DNA of 64,000 nucleotides from positions 1 through 64,000 of the forward strand of contig JARQWU010000023.1 in the NCBI GenBank assembly GCA_040182905.1. Direction: 5' to 3'. Source of the DNA: Barthelona sp. PAP020. Lineage: Eukaryota. The notes under the pieces were generated by a model. That model did not search any database. It saw only the letters and a list, made by a program, of their open reading frames with translations, and had not been told where the DNA came from. The position numbers were made by a program, and so were the translations under genes. Positions 46,256-59,196 of the stretch are shown here, piece after piece (positions within the stretch are counted from its first letter, which is position 1; every line of letters starts with the position of its first letter).

Positions 46256-47041
46256 TTAAGCAATTGTTGAATCCATTGCAGAACCTTTTTCAGCATCAAC
46301 AGAAGCTGTCCGTTGAATTAGAGAAACAGATAAATCTTTTAAGCTCAAAAGACTGGGTTTCTTACGATTTACAAAAGGGCTAAGAGAAATACCTCGTGAA
46401 GGTGGTAATCTTATTTCAGGTGTCGAAATTCTGGTTTGAGGACGTGGTGGTAAATCTTTCTGAAATAATTTAAGTGGATCAACATCATCATCATCAGATG
46501 AATCTAAGTCTGAATCAGAATCTATCTTTTGTGAATTTTCCTTTAAAATCGAAGATGGAGGAGCTGAAGCAACCCGGTTTGGTTGATAAGGTATTGGTGA
46601 AGGAATTAACAAATAATTTGACTCAAATTCTTCATTGTCACTTATCACAGAAATAACTGAAGGAGAAGAAGCTATTGAAATTGTTTGCTCAACAGGAGAA
46701 CTCAAATTTTTATCTTTGAAACTGTGATCTATCATTGAAAAAGAAACATCAGCAGCAACAACAGGATTAATTACAATACTTTGTTCGATATCTTCGTCAG
46801 AAGAAGAAGAAATATCACAATCACTGTCACTAACTGCAAGTTCAGTTATATCAATAATATGTGTATGAGGTGTGTCTAAAACACTTTGACTATTAGATCT
46901 ATTGGCAAGGGTTAATGACAATGGTGTTGATTGCAAAAAAGGAGAACGTTTCATTATGGGATATTCAATATTCTGTAATCTTTCTCTATCATAGCTAATA
47001 GATTGATCATCTACACTATGATCATCCACAACCAACATCAT
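46256..47041 (-). CDS. Hypothetical Ser/Asp-rich disordered protein
   Basis: Long ORF, first ATG at 47041, low complexity. Confidence 0.6.
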   Translation of the reverse strand: MMLVVDDHSVDDQSISYDRERLQNIEYPIMKRSPFLQSTPLSLTLANRSNSQSVLDTPHTHIIDITELAVSDSDCDISSSSDEDIEQSIVINPVVAADVSFSMIDHSFKDKNLSSPVEQTISIASSPSVISVISDNEEFESNYLLIPSPIPYQPNRVASAPPSSILKENSQKIDSDSDLDSSDDDDVDPLKLFQKDLPPRPQTRISTPEIRLPPSRGISLSPFVNRKKPSLLSLKDLSVSLIQRTASVDAEKGSAMDSTIA

Positions 47042-47399
47042 GGCAAAGGATGTTGATAATTTTAAGAATTGATAATTTCTTTTTTTTTTCTTTTCCTGTG
47101 ACAAGTTTATCGTGTTTGTTGTTGTTATTTTGTTCAAATTTTGAAAGTGATTGTTGAATAAATGCTTTTGTAAAAAATGTAGACCTTTCAGTAATCAAAT
47201 ATAAGATAACATTTTTAAATCCAATGAGATTGGATCCAACTTTTTAAAGATGTTTACATAATTTTTCTTTCATTTTTGGAATTATTTTGAAAAAGTTGCA
47301 TCATATCAAATGTTCTTCAAAGATTTTAAATAATTTAATTAAATTTGCTTTTTATGTTATTTCTAAAACCAAATTTATTGTTTTTAAGAAAAAGAATAA

Positions 47400-48494
47400 A
47401 TGTTCAAAAACATTTTTTTATTTTCACATTCGAAATCTGATACTTACCACATGACAAGTGATTCCATGGATGATAGTGAAATTGTGTTGAGGAACATTGA
47501 TGTTTCTGATGGTACCATAACTGATTTTTTGGGATTGGACGAAAATATTGTTACCATCAAGGCATCAAATAATTCCATCAATGATTTATCTCATTTGTCT
47601 AATCGTAGTTCTTTGAAATGCTTGATTGCAAATCATAATTATATTTCCACTTTCAGGTCACTACGATCAGTTAATAATTTAAACACCTTAGTCTTATCAA
47701 ATAATAGAATTAAAACAATCAAAGATTCTGCTGTAATGCCTTCATTGACAAAATTGAATTTGTCTCACAATTTATTAGCTGCCTTTGATTATGAAACCAA
47801 TTATTTTCCCAGATTGCAAGAATTAAGATTAAACAGTAATCAAATCAGCAGTTTGGAATCATTTAAAAATTTGCAAAGAATTCAAATTTTGGATTTGGGT
47901 AATAATCAGATTTCTGATATTTCTGAATTAGAAAATTTAAAACATTTGGAAAAATTGAAAAATTTGAATTTGTTAGGCAATCCTTTTGTTCCTTCCAAAG
48001 AAGATAAGGATAAATATGATGCTTATGTTGAAGAAGTGAGAAAATTATTTCCTAATTTGATTGTTTTAGATTCGAAACGTGTTTTACCAAAAAGAGGATT
48101 ACTTTCAGCACGTAAAAAAACTGCGGGAAAAAATCAAAAGCAAAATAAAAATCAACAACTAAATAAAAATCAACAACATAAAAATCGAAATAAGGAAGCA
48201 AAGTCAGAGAATGTTGAAAAATTTGAAAGGACTGAAAAAAAGGAGAAAAAAGAAAAAAAAGAAAAGAAAGAAACGACCAAATCAAGGGAGAGAATGAAAG
48301 CAAATAAACAGAAAGCAAAAAGAGAGCCAACAATTGAAACCGTAGAAGAAAGAAACTTGGATGAAGAAAAAATTATCAACGAAAGTGTCAACATGAATAT
48401 TGATATGAAAAAGAAAGAATTGGGAAAAAGAAAGTCAAATCAAAATGATGTTTTGAAAAATATTCAACAAGAAACAGAGACAGAAAGTTGGTAG
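47400..48494 (+). CDS. SDS22-like leucine-rich repeat protein with basic tail
   Basis: LxxLxLSxNxI repeats, LNLLGNP cap, LIVLD; start may be 47451. Confidence 0.85.
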   Translation: MFKNIFLFSHSKSDTYHMTSDSMDDSEIVLRNIDVSDGTITDFLGLDENIVTIKASNNSINDLSHLSNRSSLKCLIANHNYISTFRSLRSVNNLNTLVLSNNRIKTIKDSAVMPSLTKLNLSHNLLAAFDYETNYFPRLQELRLNSNQISSLESFKNLQRIQILDLGNNQISDISELENLKHLEKLKNLNLLGNPFVPSKEDKDKYDAYVEEVRKLFPNLIVLDSKRVLPKRGLLSARKKTAGKNQKQNKNQQLNKNQQHKNRNKEAKSENVEKFERTEKKEKKEKKEKKETTKSRERMKANKQKAKREPTIETVEERNLDEEKIINESVNMNIDMKKKELGKRKSNQNDVLKNIQQETETESW

Positions 48495-48509
48495 GAATAA
48501 ATGTATGTT

Positions 48510-48584
48510 CTTTTCCGTTGTTAAATTTTTTTATTTTATTTATGACTTCATTAAACCATCCGTGGGGGTGGGGGAATTGAGGGA
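48510..48584. repeat. Left (element 3') degenerate inverted terminal repeat
   Basis: Blocks cttttccgt / gacttcattaaaccatcc / aattgaggga are reverse-complementary, in order, to 52361-52402. Confidence 0.75.
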
Positions 48585-51500
48585 TTTTATATGCGAACGC
48601 TCGTCTGATTGTTCTCATCGTCTGACGATTCTGAGACGCTGTGACCCGAAAATCTCTCATAATCGTTTACGATGGCACAATCAGCATAATGTTCTGCTAA
48701 ACCTGGTGAGTTCCAACCTCCTGCGGCGCGAACAACTTCCATGTCGGTATGTTTATCCTTTAGTTCTTTAGCCCGTCCTCGGCGGAAAGAATGGAGCAGT
48801 ATGTCCCTAGGTAAATTTCTTTCCTTCGTCCAAGCACGTATTCGAGTGTTTAAAGTTTTCATTAACTCAGTCTTCTCTTGTTTTCTAGCTTTCAGGATCT
48901 TCACCTTGTTCCGAACGAGATTTTGGAAGAATTCCTTACCTTGTGGGTGTTCGTTCAATTCTTGTTCGTTTATAGGGATCGTTTTGCTTGTGTCGTTCTT
49001 CTTAGCATAGATCGAAACCTGTACATTCCCGTCTTGTACTACTACTGCTGAATTCCCCAACTCTAGGTCGCTTCTTCGGGAACATGTGAAATATAAAGCC
49101 AGCGCGGTATCCCTGACATCTTCGCCCTCCGTTTCCTTGATGTATTCTGCCAAGTCCCAGACTTGACTCTTGGAGATTCCTCTTTGATCTCTTATTATGG
49201 GCTCTAAGCCTTTCCTACGTTGTTCATGTCGGTGGCTCATAGCTTTCTTATGTCTTTCGAAAGCGGGGTCCGGAGCCCAACCTAAGGCCCCCCAGAAGTA
49301 TTGTACGGCGGAATACATCGACTGTAATCTTGCCACGCCTACTTTATATGACCCATCTGCTCTCAACTCATTACCACATTCATTAATGAATTTATGTAGA
49401 ACCGTCTCTGCTTGCTTATTCACTTCTGCTGGAACTGCTTCATATAACTTCCCGTAGTACTGGAGGTATTTGTTGTAAATGCTCCGATATTGGTTCCAAG
49501 TTCCTACTGCCACGCCGTCTTTGAGCAGTTCTAATGTAAAAGGGTCAGCCAAACCGCTTAATACAGTTTCGACCTCCTGAAGTTCCTCGTTTCCTTTACT
49601 ACTTAGCCGGTGTGACAAATCAAGACCATCGATTCTCAGAGTCGGTTTATCTCCTTTTGTTTCTGCCACGTAATACCTCCATGGAAGCCAAGTATTGAGT
49701 CGCGCCCCGTAGATATCGATCTCTTTGCCAAAACTCATTGCTCGTAACATGAGATCCAGAACCATGTTCTCCGAAGTTTCTTTGTAAGCCCATCCGCCTT
49801 TGTAGGATTCCACTTCTGCGTAGAATAGGATACTTTCATACCCCCAAGCGGCTTTGGCTTCCTTTTCATCTAAGCTAATGGAGCTTTCCATCGGTGTGGA
49901 AAGGTGAGACGTTTCTAACATCTTTCGTGTGATAACCTCCGGATATTTTCCAAATGCCATCTTATGACGTCGGGCAACTGTCCTTATCTTCCTGCTTTTA
50001 TCTTGCAGACTTTTCCCTGTTCTGTTCTTAATTCTTGGACATTCTCGGACCATAGAAAACGTTTCATTCGTATAGTCTGGGATTTCAAAACTTGTGGGAC
50101 ATAAGGTAAGGTCACCAAAGAGGGTATTATCCTTTATTCTAACAGGTTTATCCCTGCTCAACATGTCTGCAACCTTATTTCGATCAGTAGGAATCCACAT
50201 GGGTATCACTTTAAGATTAAGTTCCTCCATGCGTCTCCATATCCTATTTGACATGTTCCGTAGTGAGTCTTTTACACTTCGCGCTCTTCTGAAAGCACTC
50301 AAGGCGACTTGGTTATCCACGAGCCACACCCAACAACCATTGAGTGCTTTTTCTGGGAAAAACTCAATAGCTTCTTCCAAAGCTGATAACTCTAAGAGGT
50401 CAATTTGTTTAGGAAGCTCTTTCTTTGGTTTTCTCTTCCGCATTCGTTTCTCCTCTTTTGTTTCCAATGCAATGCCAATACCGTTAAGAGATGCGTCGGT
50501 AGCAACGGTCGCTGTTACAACTCTTGGTGAAAGGTCTCCTCTAATTTCTAACTTTAACCAAGCTGATATCTCTTCTCTTAGATGAAGGGGCATGGTAAGT
50601 TTTGTAGAGTTGTGTAGCCTAACAAAATCTTCCATTGAAGAAGCTCCAAAGCGAAACATCTGATGTTTGACGAAATTGCTTATCTCCAAAGATAATCTTC
50701 TGTACTTTTGATGGACAATTGAAGCCGATTGGAGCTTTCCTTGCAGACTTGCTATCTCAGATAGTGTCATCACGTCCTTCGTCATATCTAGCATCTTCTC
50801 TCTTTTATCCCGAGGCAGGCTAATTCTTCGACTTTTTAAATCAAGGTCGAAACCTAGGTATTTCACCTCTTGGTCTGGTTTCTGGGTTTTACTTGATTTT
50901 ACTTTGAAACCAACTCCGTTCAGTAACTTCTTGGTGTGGTCTAATGCCTTTTCGGTTTCTTCTTTAGTCCTTCCTCCGATAAGCAAATCATCTACATATT
51001 GAAGGACAAAGAAACCATCTGCTCTTACTCTCTCAACCACAACCTGTAAAACCATGGTAAACATTTGAGCTGCAACTGATGAACCGAAAGGAAGTCTTTT
51101 AGCCCCGTATGTTTTCCCGTTTACTTTTACTTGAGTTAAACTAGCCCATTCCTCTGAGAGTGGTATATGAGTGTAACCGCTTTCAATATCAATCACTGCA
51201 GCCCACTCAGGAATTAAGGGAAAATATTTCAAAGTGTTAACTTCCGTGGCCCACAGAACACTTTTAGCATTCAGTTCTCTGCAGTCCAAGATTGGGCGAA
51301 TATCATCAACGCCCTTTGGAACTGCGCCAAGACCTGCTGTCAATCCTTTTGAAGGAGTGATCTCCTCTAAGACTCCCATTTCAATCATCTTATTTAACGC
51401 CTTCTCTTCATCAATACCAGCCCAATTTTGAACTTTAGCTGAGAGATTTGTGCCTTCATCAAGAAGAGTGGGTGCCCCTTCGATTAAACTTTTTAGAAAC

Positions 51501-52401
51501 CGTTTAGTCTCTGTATTGTAGCCAAGGGAAGTTGCGATTTTTTCAAAGTTTTCCCAGCACCAGTTCCCATCAATATCTTTTGGGGTACTTGATGATTTTG
51601 CAATACGGACTTCAGGGACGACGTGTGCTACCTGATCCCTTCTTTTCTTGATAACACTTAGTGTTTTGTCTTTTTTCTCTTCCGATTGCGGAAGCTGAGG
51701 TTTCTTGGGTAAATTCTTCTCTTTCTGTTCATTTTTTTTGGTTGGTTCTTTTTCCAAATAAGAAAAAGTTTTGTTTTTATTTGAATTTTTTTGGATTTCC
51801 AGAGGTAAGGCTACTCCAAAGCGATTGAAGCACATATCTATTAAGTCTTTGGCATATCTGTCGCCTGTTCTCATTGTTAAAATCTTTACAATGGCCGATT
51901 TGACCGCTGAATAGATTTCATCGTTGACACCATCGTCCCATCTGTATAAATGTAATTCGTCCAAAAAAATTCCCATAGTTAAGGCAATAACAGCAACGTT
52001 TTGAGCCTCGAATGCACCGTCTTGTCCTGCGAGTGCATCTCGTACATCTTTCGCACGAAAAATCTCTTGAAGAATCGAATTCGTCGTTCTAGCTGTTTCT
52101 GCTTTTACGTTGAGGAATGCAGGTCCATTTTCGTTGGATAGCCTCAACGATTTGGCAAATATTTCTGCCAATTTTTCGACACCTATTGGTGTTGTATCCT
52201 CTTTGTTGTTCATGAGTGTATTACTTCAAAAATAACGGTAAATGTTCGATATGAGGATCACGAATAAGTATTTTGAGAACGATTCTTTATGTTTCTCAAA
52301 TAAGTCTTGTGTCTTCCAACTTACCAACCAGTTGATATCAGTTTTGAGTGTTTGCTGTCGTCACTCAATTGGGATGTTTTATGGAGTCTCTTTACGGAAA
52401 A
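48511..52401 (-). mobile_element. Tyrosine-recombinase (DIRS-superfamily-like) retrotransposon, single ORF, apparently intact
   Basis: GC clearly above host; termini TTTTCCGT (48511-18) / ACGGAAAA (52394-401); GTTC direct repeat at 48507-10 and 52402-05; RT-RH-YR ORF. Confidence 0.88.
48587..52213 (-). CDS. Polyprotein: putative Gag-like N-terminus, reverse transcriptase, RNase H, unknown domain, tyrosine recombinase
   Basis: RT: VPK..IRPILDCRELN, IDIESGYTHIP, LPFG, YVDD (aa 406), YLGF. RH: TDAS (572), LLELSA, VDN, NKVADMLSR. YR: R1046, HSFR (1141), W1167, Y1176. Confidence 0.93.
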   Translation of the reverse strand: MNNKEDTTPIGVEKLAEIFAKSLRLSNENGPAFLNVKAETARTTNSILQEIFRAKDVRDALAGQDGAFEAQNVAVIALTMGIFLDELHLYRWDDGVNDEIYSAVKSAIVKILTMRTGDRYAKDLIDMCFNRFGVALPLEIQKNSNKNKTFSYLEKEPTKKNEQKEKNLPKKPQLPQSEEKKDKTLSVIKKRRDQVAHVVPEVRIAKSSSTPKDIDGNWCWENFEKIATSLGYNTETKRFLKSLIEGAPTLLDEGTNLSAKVQNWAGIDEEKALNKMIEMGVLEEITPSKGLTAGLGAVPKGVDDIRPILDCRELNAKSVLWATEVNTLKYFPLIPEWAAVIDIESGYTHIPLSEEWASLTQVKVNGKTYGAKRLPFGSSVAAQMFTMVLQVVVERVRADGFFVLQYVDDLLIGGRTKEETEKALDHTKKLLNGVGFKVKSSKTQKPDQEVKYLGFDLDLKSRRISLPRDKREKMLDMTKDVMTLSEIASLQGKLQSASIVHQKYRRLSLEISNFVKHQMFRFGASSMEDFVRLHNSTKLTMPLHLREEISAWLKLEIRGDLSPRVVTATVATDASLNGIGIALETKEEKRMRKRKPKKELPKQIDLLELSALEEAIEFFPEKALNGCWVWLVDNQVALSAFRRARSVKDSLRNMSNRIWRRMEELNLKVIPMWIPTDRNKVADMLSRDKPVRIKDNTLFGDLTLCPTSFEIPDYTNETFSMVRECPRIKNRTGKSLQDKSRKIRTVARRHKMAFGKYPEVITRKMLETSHLSTPMESSISLDEKEAKAAWGYESILFYAEVESYKGGWAYKETSENMVLDLMLRAMSFGKEIDIYGARLNTWLPWRYYVAETKGDKPTLRIDGLDLSHRLSSKGNEELQEVETVLSGLADPFTLELLKDGVAVGTWNQYRSIYNKYLQYYGKLYEAVPAEVNKQAETVLHKFINECGNELRADGSYKVGVARLQSMYSAVQYFWGALGWAPDPAFERHKKAMSHRHEQRRKGLEPIIRDQRGISKSQVWDLAEYIKETEGEDVRDTALALYFTCSRRSDLELGNSAVVVQDGNVQVSIYAKKNDTSKTIPINEQELNEHPQGKEFFQNLVRNKVKILKARKQEKTELMKTLNTRIRAWTKERNLPRDILLHSFRRGRAKELKDKHTDMEVVRAAGGWNSPGLAEHYADCAIVNDYERFSGHSVSESSDDENNQTSVRI

Positions 52402-52402
52402 G
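52361..52402. repeat. Right (element 5') degenerate inverted terminal repeat
   Basis: tcactcaatt gggatgttttatggagtc tcttt acggaaaag. Confidence 0.75.
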
Positions 52403-52701
52403 TTCAATAAAGTCTTATTTCATATTTTTTTTTTATTTGATTCCTCAGTATTGGAAGTTTAAGTGTCCAAACAATATATGTACATCTTTTTGGAGAGAAA
52501 AAAAAGCTTGAAGCTGAATGTAAAATCAAAAATTTGTTGTTTAACAATATTAGTATTGTTTTTCAAAAGTAATTTTCAATTATTTGAATATCCAATTGTC
52601 AAATAAAGATGAATCTTCATATTTTTAAATGAAACACAGTTTTTTTTTTTTTAAGAAATTTGAATTTTATGAAGATAATTATTTAAAATTTTGAAAGAAA
52701 T

Positions 52702-55437
52702 ATGAATAAACCAACGAAAAATAATCGAGTTAATGCAATTGTATCTGATCTAATGGGATTTGTAACAAAAATTTCTCAATTTGAAAGACTAAACAGAACT
52801 AAATTGGATGAAAAAGAAATAGCGGAATATTTATCCAATGGTATACCAGCTGTTGGGGGAATGTCACGGACAAATGGTGTTTCTTTATTAAAAAATTCTG
52901 TACATTTGCAAAACAAAGCTTCCAATACCAAACAAACTTCACAACCCATTGCATCTTCTTTGCCGAAAACTAAAAAAGTATCAAATAACCAATATACTCC
53001 AATCATTATTCCTGTTGATATTTTTTCTGAGCTTTTACCTAAAACTTCAGATCATGTATATCAAAAGAAGGACGCAATATCTTTATACGTTGAAACAATT
53101 GTGGAAGAAGCTTTACAAAGGAAGTTAGTCAAAATCAAATTTAACATCAATGACATTCCCTTCATTATTAATTCTTCCTTTATTTTTACGACTATTTTTC
53201 CATATATTAATGAAAAAAACATAACTAAACCCAAAAAATTCCAAAAAATATTGGATACTGTTGAAGTTCAACGTATGCTTGAGGCATTGGTGTGGTTTGT
53301 ACATATGAGAGAATTTGAGATCAACAATATGACTGAAGAAAATCAATTTGTAAATTTGGAATCAAATCCAGCAATAATTCAGGATATTTATGAAAGAGAG
53401 GGATGGCTATTAACCATCTTAACTCATGGATATACTTCGGTGTTTGTTTCTTTGGATAGTGGACAGTTTCAACATCACAGTGATTCTGATCGGTCAGAAT
53501 TTTTAACTTTTTTCCCTATTGTCATGGCATATGCTGTATTGTCTGTATTTTATCACTGTTTTCCTGCTTGTAATGAAGTGTATACGGCTCAATTTCTTAT
53601 TGACGTTTATCAATTAGTTTCTTTATTGTTTAACGGTATTCCTTATAGTGTTAGTTTAATTAATGAGTATAGACAGAAGTTTTTCATTGTGAATGAATTG
53701 AAGTGTTTTAGTGAGAATTCACCAGTGAAAATCCATTCAAAAATTCCATTATCTGCTGGATTTAACAAGAAAGAAAACATTTTAAAGAATCATATCAATT
53801 TAGATAGTCCTATTGTATTGTCAAAGAACGTTTCTTCACCCAATCCTAATTCTCCCAACAAACGATGTTTCAGTCGGTCTTTGACTCCTGATTTAACCAA
53901 TAAGAACAGACATGTAAAATGGCAAGATACTGATTCAAATCGTCCTAAATCTCAATTAGCTATGAATACTCCTTTAAATAGCTCATCATCTTCAAAAAAT
54001 CAGCATTATCATCTTCAAACACCAAAACCTGAAGTAAAATCAAAAAAACAAAAAGATTCTGATTCATATAAGTTTCCACAACTTCCTTCATCTCCATCAT
54101 CATCAGCAGTTGGTACGAAAATTGCAAAAAAGTATCAAAATTCAACATTGAATACCCCCATCGATAAACAAACACCTATAACAAATAAAGTTGATGAAAA
54201 AATCAAAACTAAGACAAATATTAGATCCAATCGAAGAAATGGAAGTATAAAGAAACAAGCTACAATTTTCCCCACACCCGTTGGAGAAACCTCAAGTAAT
54301 AATCAAATACCAGGCCAACAATTAAATGTCGATGTTCAAGTAAAACTTTCCAGAGATAGCAGAAAGAGATTACTTGTACGCCCAAAGAAATTCAATTCGC
54401 TTGCAAAATCACCGTTACTTGATCCGTCATTGTATTCAGTTGTTTCATTAAAACCTGCTAAAGATATTGATACTATTCATTTGAGACATATTGGTGATTT
54501 AGAACGAAGAACTGAATTGGATTTAAATTTGGATGAAGAGAAATTGGAAGTTGGAATTTTGACTAAAAACCAAAGATATCAGCAAATAATGAAAGATTTG
54601 CATATTTCTGAAGATTATGAAGAGTTTTTTAATAAAACAGTTCAAACTTTCACTCCTGGAAAAAAAGCTGTTTACATACTTCATCCATCTGTTAACACAA
54701 CAAAATCTTCCCCTTATGTTAATGGAAGACTATTTCCACTCGGTATTGAATTGAATGGTCCAGAAATGGATAAGATTAATCAAGAAATAGGAAAAGTTGA
54801 GAAAAATACCATCGACCAATTAATTGAAAATGAAATAAGCTATTTTGAAAACAAATTAAGACTAAAGGCTCAAACACCTTTAGAAAGAGCAGTTTTTGTG
54901 AGAAAAATGTTGGAAAGGAGCAAATTATACAATAGAAACAAAGGATTATCAGTTTCTTTGACAGATTTAAAATTGCAAAAGAAAAAAGAAACTTTGGAAG
55001 CTCAAGTGGATAAGATTTTGAGAGATGAAAAACTTTTGCAAAATTATGCTATGGATTTGGATAAAAAGAAACGAGAATTTGAAGAAAATGAAGAAGTCAG
55101 GGAAGAAGAAGATGTGTTTTCACTTATAGACCACAGCAAAGCGGATGAACAAAGAAGACCTTCTTTATTACCAACATTACCAATTTCAATCAACACAAGA
55201 AGATCAAGTGTGATTCAACTCACTGAACGAACGGTTCATCCTGATACAATTGATGAAGATATTGCTGTTGCAACTACATTCATGAATGATGATGTGGCTC
55301 CTATGGCAGTAGGTAGAAGAATGTCTACTGGATTAGCTATGGACGTTGGTTTGCCTTGGGAAGACATAATTGATCCAATTGTTGCTCTGAGTGAAGAAAG
55401 TGATTATGAATGGGATCCTGCCGATATTGTAAATTAA
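52702..55437 (+). CDS. FAM227-like (FWWh domain) protein with long disordered tail
   Basis: EALVWFVHMREF..HGYTSVF..FLTFFPIVMAYAVLSVFYHCFP..F..LLFNGI pattern. Confidence 0.55.
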   Translation: MNKPTKNNRVNAIVSDLMGFVTKISQFERLNRTKLDEKEIAEYLSNGIPAVGGMSRTNGVSLLKNSVHLQNKASNTKQTSQPIASSLPKTKKVSNNQYTPIIIPVDIFSELLPKTSDHVYQKKDAISLYVETIVEEALQRKLVKIKFNINDIPFIINSSFIFTTIFPYINEKNITKPKKFQKILDTVEVQRMLEALVWFVHMREFEINNMTEENQFVNLESNPAIIQDIYEREGWLLTILTHGYTSVFVSLDSGQFQHHSDSDRSEFLTFFPIVMAYAVLSVFYHCFPACNEVYTAQFLIDVYQLVSLLFNGIPYSVSLINEYRQKFFIVNELKCFSENSPVKIHSKIPLSAGFNKKENILKNHINLDSPIVLSKNVSSPNPNSPNKRCFSRSLTPDLTNKNRHVKWQDTDSNRPKSQLAMNTPLNSSSSSKNQHYHLQTPKPEVKSKKQKDSDSYKFPQLPSSPSSSAVGTKIAKKYQNSTLNTPIDKQTPITNKVDEKIKTKTNIRSNRRNGSIKKQATIFPTPVGETSSNNQIPGQQLNVDVQVKLSRDSRKRLLVRPKKFNSLAKSPLLDPSLYSVVSLKPAKDIDTIHLRHIGDLERRTELDLNLDEEKLEVGILTKNQRYQQIMKDLHISEDYEEFFNKTVQTFTPGKKAVYILHPSVNTTKSSPYVNGRLFPLGIELNGPEMDKINQEIGKVEKNTIDQLIENEISYFENKLRLKAQTPLERAVFVRKMLERSKLYNRNKGLSVSLTDLKLQKKKETLEAQVDKILRDEKLLQNYAMDLDKKKREFEENEEVREEEDVFSLIDHSKADEQRRPSLLPTLPISINTRRSSVIQLTERTVHPDTIDEDIAVATTFMNDDVAPMAVGRRMSTGLAMDVGLPWEDIIDPIVALSEESDYEWDPADIVN

Positions 55438-55550: not shown

Positions 55551-56330
55551 ATGCCCATACAATTATTACCTGACGTTTCTGATGCATTATCTCCTCGTAT
55601 TTTAGGTCTTGGAATTGGTTCTTTTTTATTAATTGTTTTATTTGTTTGTAGTTTATTATTTTTTATATTTACAACAGAATTACAAAATAGATTTTTTGTT
55701 CGAACAATTGGTATTTTGATAATTTTATTAATCGTAACTTTGCTGATAGTATTAACTAGTCCTTATGGAGAAGCCGCAAAATTGGCTAAAAGTAATGTTT
55801 TTTCTTTCTTTTTTACTTTTAGGACTGGTTATTTATTGATTTTTATTTTAGGTGCTTTGTTCAGTTTTATCGCTTTTATCATTTTGTATTGGGACAAAAC
55901 AAAGTATGCCATTACACCAGAAGAATTTTCTTTAAGGCCTTTGACTGATGCTGTTATTATAGATAGTGATATTGATGAGAAAAATGATGATGATGAAAAG
56001 AGCAACAAAAGCCAAAAAGATGACATGCTGGAACCATTCATTGAGCCTCAAACAAGTGAAGATGACAATAAAGAAGAAGACCAAGTCGTTGAAACTTCAA
56101 CAAGACCGAAAAAGAAAAGAACAACAACCCGAAAAGGAAGAAAAAAAAAACAGTTAGACAAAGCTCCATCACCACCTGAAAGGTTACTAAAAGAAGAACC
56201 TTCCAGAATGCTTAACGAAACCATTGTACCTGAAAATATGATAACCAACATTGAATCTGAAACTTTGGCTGTTTCAAAACTTGTATCTGTTGTTGACGAA
56301 TTTTCGTCTGATTTTGATTCTGATGCGTAA
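55551..56330 (+). CDS. TMEM218-like 3-TM protein
   Basis: ILGLGIGSFLLIVL N-terminal motif, three TM helices, charged tail. Confidence 0.55.
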   Translation: MPIQLLPDVSDALSPRILGLGIGSFLLIVLFVCSLLFFIFTTELQNRFFVRTIGILIILLIVTLLIVLTSPYGEAAKLAKSNVFSFFFTFRTGYLLIFILGALFSFIAFIILYWDKTKYAITPEEFSLRPLTDAVIIDSDIDEKNDDDEKSNKSQKDDMLEPFIEPQTSEDDNKEEDQVVETSTRPKKKRTTTRKGRKKKQLDKAPSPPERLLKEEPSRMLNETIVPENMITNIESETLAVSKLVSVVDEFSSDFDSDA

Positions 56331-56439
56331 ATGATGTATATTTTCTTTTTACATTTCAATTTATGGAAGTTTTTGAGTGTCCACATGAATTAGAATGAGA
56401 ACTGCGAGCTGTATGGAAAAAAGGAAAAAGAATATATAT

Positions 56440-59196
56440 TTACCTGACTTTTCTGATGATACCTTTCCTTGGGTCTTGGTCGTCTGTACCGTCTGGAATC
56501 CAAATGAAACCTCTCTGAATGAATGTGGGGGAATTGTAGAACTTTCTTAAATCTGTTGAGATGTCTTTACACTTTTCATAGAATTCACCCACATCTGTTT
56601 CAAGATCGAACTGATCAATTGAACGCAGCTCCAGAACGTTATCTGCATCCAAAATATTGAATTTTCTGTTCATCTGATGCTTTCTCAATTCGAGTAGCTT
56701 GTACATTAAGATTTCGGGGATATTACCGCTCAACACGATATAATTGCTGAAGTCACGTTGCAACTTCTGACTAATTCTGTATCTTTGTGTGCCTATGAAG
56801 CTCTCCAAAACCATTTTGATTGCCAAATCGACATCGTCAACAGATACCTGTTGTGCCAATCTCATCTTTGCAAATGCTTCCGAGATTCTTACGATAGCTT
56901 CTAAATCACGAATGTAAACGTGCTGGGCATTTCCCTCGTTCTTGATGGTCTGTCTCAGCTTTGTGTAAAATTTGATTATCTTGTCATGCAAATGATGGCC
57001 AAACGATGGTTTACTAAATTGTCTGGCGTAAATGATGTATTTTTTAAGCATTTCTGGTGGTATCAATTCTTGACCTGTTATTGGCGATTTGTTGATATCT
57101 TGCAGATTGTTCACCCAGTCCCATTGCAATGGAACACTGTCCGGACCCTTCAAAATGGCGTCTCCCATTGATAGGTCTTTGTAAAGTGGATGCTGTGTGA
57201 TGTGGTTGAGAAGCACAAATTCTGCCAACTGTCCGTCGTTGTCGGGGTTAATAATGTCCTGAAGAACACAACAAATATCAAAACGACTGAGAATGGGGTC
57301 AGACAAATCAACGTTTTGCGTCAAAGGCAGCGATGCATCATACCTGCCCTTGGATGGATTTGCAGCAGCAATAACAGCGCAACGGGCATGGAGTGATGCA
57401 ACAATACCTGCCTTGGCCACGGAAACTTTTTGTTGTTCAAGGGCTTCGTGGATGGATGAACGGTCTTTCTCGGTCATCTTGTCAATTTCGTCGATAAGAC
57501 AGACCCCATTGTCTGCTAAGACAAGAGCTCCTCCTTCGAGCGTCCACTCACGTGTAATGGGGTCTTTGTGCACAGTGGCTGTGAGACCAACGGCTGAGGC
57601 ACCCTTTCCAGTTGTGTATACAGATCTTTTTGCACATTTTTCGGCAAACTTCAAAAACTGAGACTTTGCAACACCGGGGTCACCAACCAAAAGCACATTG
57701 ATATCTCCTCTGATTCTGTAGCTCTTATCACCTGCTTCCTTAACCATACCTCCGAACAACGAGGCAGCTATGGCTCTTTTTACATCCAGGTGTCCATAGA
57801 TTGTTGGTGCAATGGATTCGACTATACGGGACTGGATTTGCTCGCTTTTGCTGAGCTTCAAAATTTCCTGGATGTCGTTCTGCGTCAAGTCGTTGTTAAT
57901 CGAGCGCTGGGGGTTTGAAATGTTGTTTGCCTCGATAACAGTGTCAAAAACAATAAAACTGTTGATCATCGACCGCAGATCGTCCTTCTTGTGAATATAC
58001 TTTCCGGTGATCTCCACAAGGTCACCGGGGCTCGCCTGTTCTGCAAGATCTCCGGTGAGAATAACTGTTTTTTGACGGGGCAACCGACCTGCTGGTATTG
58101 AACCAGGAGGCTCCTGAATCTTCAGGGTTTGGTAGTTTATAAATTCTGTCTCGTTTGTCTCCTGTACAAAAGCAGGATTGTCACAGCCAGTACATGTTTT
58201 CGGTCTGTCGATCTTTGGGCCACTGAAATCGTTGGCCTTGAAAACAGTGAATGTTCGGGTCAGGGTGCCGCAACTCGTGCATTTGTACCTCACTTTGTGC
58301 AGATACGGTGATACAGGGGACCTTCGGGTGACAATTGCCTCAACCTTGACTAATTTATTAATATGCTGCTGTCTCAGCTCTCTTAAAAGCGTAACTGGTC
58401 CATAATTGTCGAATCGGATATGCACATTCTGAATAATGGAGCTGTAGTTTGGGTGCAGCTTCTCAGCCATGTCGACCAAAACATCATCCAAAATTGGTAA
58501 AACTTGAGAAGGGTATTTGGCAACCCAATCAGCAATGACAGACCATTGAGTAATAGCTATATTGTTGTCTACATCTCTTCGATAAATGCACAGATCATTG
58601 TAGTCCACAGAAAGTGACATCTCATTGTTTTCACACATGGAATGAACTCGTTCAATGTACTTAAAACTACCACTACTCGTTTTGTCGGGACAATTAAACA
58701 AAAAGTCCATAAACTGATAATATATGGATCTCTCCAAGTTATTGCGTTCCTGGGAATTATTGAAATATCTAACAGGCTCATTGATCTCGGTTAAGTCAAC
58801 CTGAATTTCATTTGGATCTGCTTCCCGCATCATCTCATCATCTAAAATATTATATCTCATTCTCGTATCACGTTCAATAAAATCCTCCAAATCATCAAAC
58901 TCAGTTTCACCCAATTCCTGTCTTCGACGGGAAATCTCATCCCTAACCAATCTTGGCAACAATCGTTCCATTCGCGATGTAAATATTCTTTGATTTGTGT
59001 GTCTTTCATCAATTTCTCTCTCCGCTGCAAGTCTCTGCGCAGGAGTAATATCTGCATATTCATTAAAATCTAAGTTGGAAGTATCATATTCGTCCAGTTC
59101 AGGTCTAGATTCATAATCTCCAGCAATGGTATCAAATAAGTCTTCCTCAGAATCTGAGCCTGAATCAGAATTGTACGATTCAAATGGTTGACTCAT
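56440..59196 (-). CDS. MCM2: DNA replication licensing factor MCM2
   Basis: LDEYD histone-binding N-terminus, C4 zinc finger, GDPGVAKSQ, REWTLEGGALVLAD, IDEIDKM, LSRFD. Confidence 0.95.
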   Translation of the reverse strand: MSQPFESYNSDSGSDSEEDLFDTIAGDYESRPELDEYDTSNLDFNEYADITPAQRLAAEREIDERHTNQRIFTSRMERLLPRLVRDEISRRRQELGETEFDDLEDFIERDTRMRYNILDDEMMREADPNEIQVDLTEINEPVRYFNNSQERNNLERSIYYQFMDFLFNCPDKTSSGSFKYIERVHSMCENNEMSLSVDYNDLCIYRRDVDNNIAITQWSVIADWVAKYPSQVLPILDDVLVDMAEKLHPNYSSIIQNVHIRFDNYGPVTLLRELRQQHINKLVKVEAIVTRRSPVSPYLHKVRYKCTSCGTLTRTFTVFKANDFSGPKIDRPKTCTGCDNPAFVQETNETEFINYQTLKIQEPPGSIPAGRLPRQKTVILTGDLAEQASPGDLVEITGKYIHKKDDLRSMINSFIVFDTVIEANNISNPQRSINNDLTQNDIQEILKLSKSEQIQSRIVESIAPTIYGHLDVKRAIAASLFGGMVKEAGDKSYRIRGDINVLLVGDPGVAKSQFLKFAEKCAKRSVYTTGKGASAVGLTATVHKDPITREWTLEGGALVLADNGVCLIDEIDKMTEKDRSSIHEALEQQKVSVAKAGIVASLHARCAVIAAANPSKGRYDASLPLTQNVDLSDPILSRFDICCVLQDIINPDNDGQLAEFVLLNHITQHPLYKDLSMGDAILKGPDSVPLQWDWVNNLQDINKSPITGQELIPPEMLKKYIIYARQFSKPSFGHHLHDKIIKFYTKLRQTIKNEGNAQHVYIRDLEAIVRISEAFAKMRLAQQVSVDDVDLAIKMVLESFIGTQRYRISQKLQRDFSNYIVLSGNIPEILMYKLLELRKHQMNRKFNILDADNVLELRSIDQFDLETDVGEFYEKCKDISTDLRKFYNSPTFIQRGFIWIPDGTDDQDPRKGIIRKVR

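Follow-up and report, generated by a model that had tools for sequence, protein, structure and literature searches.

A single-frame reverse transcriptase and tyrosine recombinase element with short inverted arms and repeated GTTC in Barthelona sp. PAP020

An element of 3.9 kb whose protein has reverse transcriptase (RT), RNase H and tyrosine recombinase (YR) domains lies just downstream of a leucine-rich-repeat (LRR) gene in the barthelonid Barthelona sp. PAP020 (GenBank assembly GCA_040182905.1, contig JARQWU010000023.1, positions 1 to 64,000 of the forward strand; this whole stretch is the window throughout). The element is bounded by inverted arms of 8-9 bp and a repeated GTTC, and on balance we consider it likely to move as a YR retrotransposon, by way of a predicted circle that would recombine with a genomic GTTC. 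In short, the best reading combines DIRS-type copying with ends of the Crypton and Starship type, and the element, represented by one copy, is likely a new structural variant of YR retrotransposons. All observations on the element concern that copy and its one insertion site in the 64,000-nt window.

The element and its encoded protein

The element carries a single intact open reading frame (ORF) of 3627 bp on the minus strand (52213-48587), which encodes 1208 aa. Two proteins of the Barthelona sp. PAP020 proteome are related to its product: P0002 (1209 aa, derived from transcript assembly), which presents the same fusion and is 48% identical, and P0004 (508 aa, 47% identical). The features of the element and the adjacent host gene are the following, where LTR stands for long terminal repeat.

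47400-48494, plus strand: host LRR gene; the element lies 12 nt after its stop codon
48507-48510: left GTTC core copy (predicted crossover core and target)
48511-48518: left terminal inverted arm, where the sense strand of the element has its 3' end; 9 bp including the core C
48530-48540, minus strand: a pair of overlapping AATAAA hexamers, sense strand, ~20-30 nt short of the 3' end
48544-48561: subterminal block that matches 52372-52388 imperfectly in inverted orientation (15 of 18 columns), with modest significance
48564-48583, plus strand: G-run motif on the cDNA-sense strand; AATTGAG at 48575-48581 is an inverted match to 52364-52370
48587-52213, minus strand: single 1208-aa ORF with N-terminal region, RT, RNase H, conserved region and YR
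48659-49573, minus strand: YR, aa 881-1185
49574-50137, minus strand: conserved region without family assignment, aa 693-880, where DIRS elements have the methyltransferase
50138-50533, minus strand: RNase H, aa 561-692 (TDAS, LELxAL, DNQ, ADMLSR)
50774-51589, minus strand: RT of LTR/DIRS type, aa 209-480 (D342, YVDD 406-409)
51590-52213, minus strand: N-terminal 208 aa, fast-evolving, 14% identical to P0002
52214-52401, minus strand: the element's 188-bp 5' non-coding region, with element-like composition
52364-52388: subterminal blocks, inverted matches to 48544-48561 and 48575-48581
52394-52401: right terminal inverted arm, the 5' end of the sense strand
52402-52405: right GTTC core copy

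Pfam models identified RVT_1 (E 2.8e-23) and Phage_integrase (PF00589, E 1.2e-6; E 2e-15 in P0002) in the ORF, while RNase H was recognized by its motifs and by alignment with the outside relative P0005, the Pfam RVT_3 match (E 0.011) falling under the cut-off. No DDE integrase or transposase family of Pfam was matched by the ORF (E up to 0.1) or by its parts (E up to 5). The YR motif residues R1046, K1071/1072, H1141, R1144, W1167 and Y1176 are all present in P0002 as well, and the motifs of RT, RNase H and YR are kept in both P0001 and P0002. The residues that we take to be catalytic in the three domains were assigned by motif together with conservation in P0002. When modelled with AlphaFold, aa 692-1195 gave matches to XerA, XerH, Tn1549 Int and Cre (best E 6.9e-6); the model has a mean predicted local distance difference test (pLDDT) score of 49 and is confident in the catalytic part only.

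The N-terminal 208 aa show no Pfam match and no zinc knuckle, and are gag-like by position only. The region of aa 693-880 is 48% identical to P0002 and has no Pfam match. A remnant of a Dam-like methyltransferase was not detected in it, either by hhalign against the Dam region of P0005 (0.3%), by comparison with shuffles (29-1896 of 2000) or in the structural model, which has a pLDDT of 32 there and is unusable; in addition, the ESM Atlas returned no usable match for aa 690-900. P0004 stops at 508 aa within this conserved unassigned region, and that transcript model hence lacks YR; it may represent a truncated or frameshifted copy.

Relatives were sought by scoring ~8000 candidates in each search, within set length limits. 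The best match outside barthelonids is P0005, an RT-RNase H-Dam protein (E 7e-18), followed by four Ty3-like proteins (E 2e-5 to 5e-4); over RT-RNase H, the alignment with P0005 spans 483 columns at 25% identity (E 1e-25). In a 9-row RT tree with one DIRS-type row, the barthelonid clade sits on a branch of 2.65 changes and three groups allow one unrooted shape, so that the tree, with only nine rows, is too thin to place the lineage. The YR region alone matched none of 2167 candidates of 168-536 aa at E 0.01, no match occurred in 99 viral-contig stretches, and none was found in phage records. A metagenome scan gave 12 loci in 447 stretches, all weak (27-30%, aa 197-309); two of the 12 were scanned and are alpha/beta hydrolases, and all 12 were dropped.

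The host DNA of the window is that of a gene-dense, A/T-rich eukaryote. The element has a G+C content of 0.42 and a third-position value (GC3) of 0.40, whereas GC3 is 0.18-0.30 in 29 of the 30 other ORFs.

Definition of the ends

The first-pass annotation had described an 8-bp terminal inverted repeat inside a 4-bp GTTC direct repeat. Both are exact in the sequence and at the positions claimed: GTTC at 48507-48510, TTTTCCGT at 48511-48518, ACGGAAAA at 52394-52401 and GTTC at 52402-52405. The outer C and G of the GTTC core pair too, so the ends are equally readable as 9-bp arms around TT. The sequence between the cores measures 3891 bp, the predicted circle 3895 bp. The left core begins 12 nt past the stop (48494) of the host LRR gene, and the next host ORF lies 296 bp beyond the element.

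We regard the GTTC-bounded ends as real with good confidence. As search space for such ends, the neighbouring ORFs leave 92 nt to the left by 488 nt to the right. In it, an inverted repeat (IR) of at least 8 bp with an adjacent direct repeat (DR) of at least 4 bp arose in 205 of 5000 dinucleotide shuffles, and in 6 of 5000 when at least five G/C were demanded, a criterion set after the motif was seen. Under the latter criterion, four cases occur in 756 intergenic-region pairs, the GTTC site among the four. Configurations of the IR/DR type are present at 5 of 24 other ORFs of the window, all five of them A/T-rich.

The right boundary is independently supported by a change point in composition. 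Trinucleotide models contrasted the element ORF with 20 host intergenic regions, the element model being trained on coding DNA. The cumulative score is maximal at 52397 (2-unit interval 52366-52418), reaches 6.9 at 52400 and drops to -5.8 at 52540; the model prefers the GTTC right end by ~13 log units over 52535, the right end of a competing configuration (see below). Per base, 52214-52401 scores +0.034, and 52406-52535, which contains two long A/T runs, is host-like at -0.094 (host intergenic regions: mean -0.113, sd 0.039, maximum -0.027). G+C alone delimits an interval of 52390-52547 and does not separate the GTTC end from the 52535 end. Inside the composition interval, GTTC is the sole IR 8+/DR 4+ configuration, and an equal one arose in 35 of 20000 shuffles.

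Both ends also present the same inward order: arm, an 18-column block with 15 identical columns (48544-48561 versus 52372-52388) and AATTGAG (48575 versus 52364), at different spacing. Without the arm, and with the right end limited to its first 72 nt, the match of these blocks was reached in 3, 8, 13 and 20 of 2000 shuffles under four scorings. With the pre-selected arm included, the end-to-end duplex has -17 kcal/mol (as cDNA-sense DNA) and beats 298-300 of 300 shuffles (0-2 reach it) in all four settings of strand and molecule. Overall, a gapped, asymmetric inverted end has modest support.

The overlapping AATAAA hexamers at 48530-48540 are possibly a polyadenylation signal. The G-run motif at 48564-48583, one of two such motifs in the window, sits between the two subterminal blocks, and a 7-bp hairpin stem at 52344-52368 in the 5' region overlaps the inner one. 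No Rfam match was found in 48300-52800 and no tRNA gene in the window.

The crossover core and its target

The repeated GTTC had initially been read as a crossover core and not as a target-site duplication (TSD) of the DDE type. This interpretation stands: the motifs of a tyrosine recombinase are intact and no DDE enzyme is present, so the 4-mer is best read as a core shared by element and target, and a DDE-type TSD was rejected. The accompanying claim that arms and core form the usual layout of tyrosine-recombinase sites was not borne out, since 8-bp arms around a 4-bp core differ from the arms of 11-13 bp and spacer of 6-8 bp that the account in PMC3212892 gives for canonical sites.

Both the circle junction and the empty site were reconstructed from the window sequence. 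At the junction, eight positions pair outward from the core, then none. The empty site shows no arm symmetry (pairing at 1 of the first 4 positions and at 5 of 12), and in the target flanks just 3 and 4 of 12 bases agree with those of the element arms; the target therefore appears to offer the core only. A loxP-like symmetric target was rejected for this lack of arm pairing. GTTC occurs 457 times in the window on both strands. At this one site, the core contains GTT on the plus strand and reads GAAC on the coding strand, to be compared with NTT in DIRS elements.

Core-sharing through recombination of a circle with its target is already known and is not new. A short core common to both is part of the published model for DIRS elements, where it has 3 bp (in the accounts of PMC3266345 and PMC7192593); Cryptons are described with 4-6-bp terminal direct repeats as recombination substrates (PMC3212892), and Starships with a TTAC core shared with the target (PMC10104507).

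Missing repeat structures

In the examined copy the element has no internal complementary region (ICR), no split direct repeats and no long inverted terminal repeats (ITRs). Eight tests on both strands, in which internal copies of the ends or of the junction were sought, remained at null level, each being reached by 54-197 of 200 shuffles. Split direct repeats of the form A1...B1-A2-B2 were not found, no direct repeat in 47000-54000 being above chance and the longest exact non-palindromic match being 14 bp. Long ITRs were likewise not found, the inverted ends consisting of 8-9 perfect bp plus gapped blocks of 18 and 7 bp. Each of the RT-YR groups, as covered in the descriptions cited here, has either an ICR together with ITRs or split direct repeats; to keep their ends through reverse transcription, DIRS-1 needs its ICR and the other groups use the split repeats. 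Given that no internal copy is present from which ends could be rebuilt, the element likely restores its ends in another way.

Comparison with known systems

With RT, RNase H and, in place of a DDE integrase, YR, the element fits the DIRS order in its broad sense; a DDE transposase making a TSD, which defines DDE terminal inverted repeat (TIR) transposons, is lacking. According to the descriptions of DIRS1-like elements (DIRS-1 of Dictyostelium; Piednoel et al. 2011, PMC3266345; Malicki et al. 2020, PMC7192593), these share with it the order of RT-RNase H then YR, inverted ends, and a short core common to circle junction and target with no true TSD; its closest non-barthelonid protein is moreover the RT-RNase H-Dam protein. 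However, their described ITRs of 66-316 bp (PMC3266345) differ from the perfect 8-9-bp IR of the element, their ICR matches both ends whereas the element has none, and their core is a 3-bp NTT instead of 4 bp. They also have separate gag, pol and YR ORFs in place of one 1208-aa ORF (a single frame is seen in P0002 too) and a methyltransferase, none being recognizable in the element.

PAT-like elements, Ngaro and VIPER/TATE, as portrayed in PMC6681497, PMC4157794 and PMC8547959, share RT/RNase H and YR with the element. Ngaro and VIPER are methyltransferase-free, and two TATE copies with a single ORF in Bodo saltans set a precedent for the single ORF found here. In contrast, these groups have split direct repeats (A1...B1-A2-B2), and the ends of the element are inverted, not direct. 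Cryptons (Kojima and Jurka 2011, PMC3212892) have YR, 4-6-bp terminal direct repeats comparable to the GTTC at both ends, and a proposed circular intermediate, but no RT and, as described in that paper, no TIRs, whereas the element has RT, RNase H and an 8-bp IR. Starships (Urquhart et al. 2023, PMC10104507) are similarly YR-driven and are described with a 4-bp TTAC direct repeat arising from homology between end and target and with short TIRs, like the element. They are, however, giant fungal DNA elements with a DUF3435 recombinase, cargo and no RT, and differ in this from a 3.9-kb element with one ORF, PF00589 and no DUF3435 match. The element thus does not have the end structure of the DIRS1-like, PAT-like, Ngaro or VIPER groups, and its ends resemble those of the RT-less Cryptons and Starships.

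Proposed mechanism and its significance

All steps beyond the anatomy are ones that we infer. An RNA would reach both GTTC cores, the ends of its cDNA would pair with each other, the recombinase would join the two cores into a circle, and the GTTC junction of this circle would cross with a genomic GTTC.

We tentatively propose, as a possibility somewhat short of even, that the element exemplifies a fifth structural class of YR retrotransposons in barthelonid-related protists. Such a class would encode a gag-RT-RNase H-YR polyprotein, have neither ICR nor split repeats, and use its recombinase to define and rebuild the ends through two GTTC cores held by short inverted arms. If this is true, the element would be a retroelement of minimal design, its ends being of the Crypton/Starship type. 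There has been barely any test of the way in which YR retrotransposons rebuild their ends or of the substrate on which the recombinase acts, the one experiment found being that on DIRS-1, which needs its ICR (as reported in PMC7192593). An intact element with neither ICR nor split repeats would show a third solution to end rebuilding, and its 3.9 kb, single ORF and 8-bp arms would make for a simple system in which to test circle formation and integration directed by the core. Such an element would also be an intermediate between inverted-end and direct-end elements, a kind not observed according to the treatment in PMC4157794.

The element extends YR retroelements to barthelonid metamonads, no earlier report having been found in the literature searched. 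Full-text searches found no description of an RT-YR element with neither ICR nor split repeats; Repbase was outside the search, and a catalogued precedent is therefore possible. In the main text of the barthelonid genome paper (PMC11316075), the terms 'DIRS', 'retrotranspos' and 'recombinase' have zero occurrences.

Weighing the alternatives

Several observations weigh against the proposed mechanism and ends. The arms are shorter than those of canonical YR sites and the target has none. A second, low-complexity configuration lies in the same interval (arms AAATTTTT and a GTTGTT repeat, its ends lying at 48523 and 52535); it was rejected on the composition test. The left end has no compositional support, the 76 bp of 48511-48586 scoring -0.042 per base, inside the host range. 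A looser criterion of IR 6+/DR 2+ was reached in 3781 of 20000 shuffles. The subterminal match is weaker against the whole 188-nt 5' region (78, 110, 301 and 793 of 2000 shuffles), and a score as high is reached by 907 of 1328 window tiles when the scoring is laxest. Neither untranslated region alone folds better than shuffles (z 1.30 and -0.16), no primer or promoter of the element was identified, and the window holds no second copy. Lastly, DIRS-1 cannot finish retrotransposition without its ICR (Malicki et al. 2020, PMC7192593), so a copy that lacks one may be defective.

This last point is the core of a rather unlikely alternative, in which an ordinary element of DIRS, PAT or Ngaro type would have lost its ICR or split repeats by deletion, recombination or assembly collapse, leaving the short arms as outer remnant and a copy unable to finish its cycle in cis. 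The presence of an ICR with ITRs or of split repeats in all RT-YR groups so described agrees with such a loss, as does the essential role reported for the ICR in DIRS-1 (PMC7192593). Truncated, repeat-less YR elements are described as common in fungi, and the gapped subterminal blocks could be decayed ITRs. The uninterrupted 3627-bp ORF with all catalytic motifs suggests instead that the copy is young, the two cores and the two arms are perfect, and the mere 76 bp between stop codon and end bear no scar of a junction copy. A different order of steps with the same ends, which we judge quite improbable, would have the recombinase excise a circle first, transcription across its junction yielding a terminally redundant RNA that RT amplifies. 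Two direct cores with inverted arms are an excision substrate, Starships are reported to excise cleanly at such ends (PMC10104507), a model of this kind has been proposed for Cryptons (PMC3212892), and the absence of an ICR would be accounted for too. The AATAAA hexamers just inside the 3' end, however, would tend to stop the RNA at the end, before the junction.

It is very doubtful that the GTTC ends are coincidental or foreign, with true ends elsewhere (for example the GTTGTT ends at 48523-52535) or with the ORF nested in an unrelated small TIR element that has a 4-bp TSD. Chance configurations are not rare, as the 205 of 5000 shuffles, the five other ORFs and the second configuration of the interval indicate. 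Against coincidence stand the composition shift at 52397 with host-like sequence (-0.094 per base) in 52406-52535, the failure to find inner repeats or a second boundary, and the lack of a DDE gene in the element. Finally, domestication as an immobile single-copy gene derived from a YR retroelement is extremely improbable. The fused single ORF is held at 1208 and 1209 aa in the element and in P0002, and the transcript-assembly origin of the latter would suit such a gene; but one Barthelona proteome contains two divergent families, each 47-48% identical to the element protein, and the foreign base composition, the perfect ends and the site 12 nt past a host stop codon speak for a mobile element.

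Other observations in the window

An ORF of 918 aa (56440-59196, minus strand) has a G+C content of 0.42 and a GC3 of 0.44, compared with 0.18-0.30 for the other host ORFs. By its motifs, it looks like the MCM2 subunit of the replication helicase. It may owe its odd composition to recent transfer, to local bias or to the assembly.

A similar motif, GGAAGTTT ... GTGTCCA, occurs at 52453-52469 and 56365-56383 and is absent from the top local BLAST rows. Its first copy lies downstream of the reconstructed LRR 3' end and its second 35 nt past the stop of the ORF 55551-56330; the motif is possibly a host 3' element, or a product of chance.

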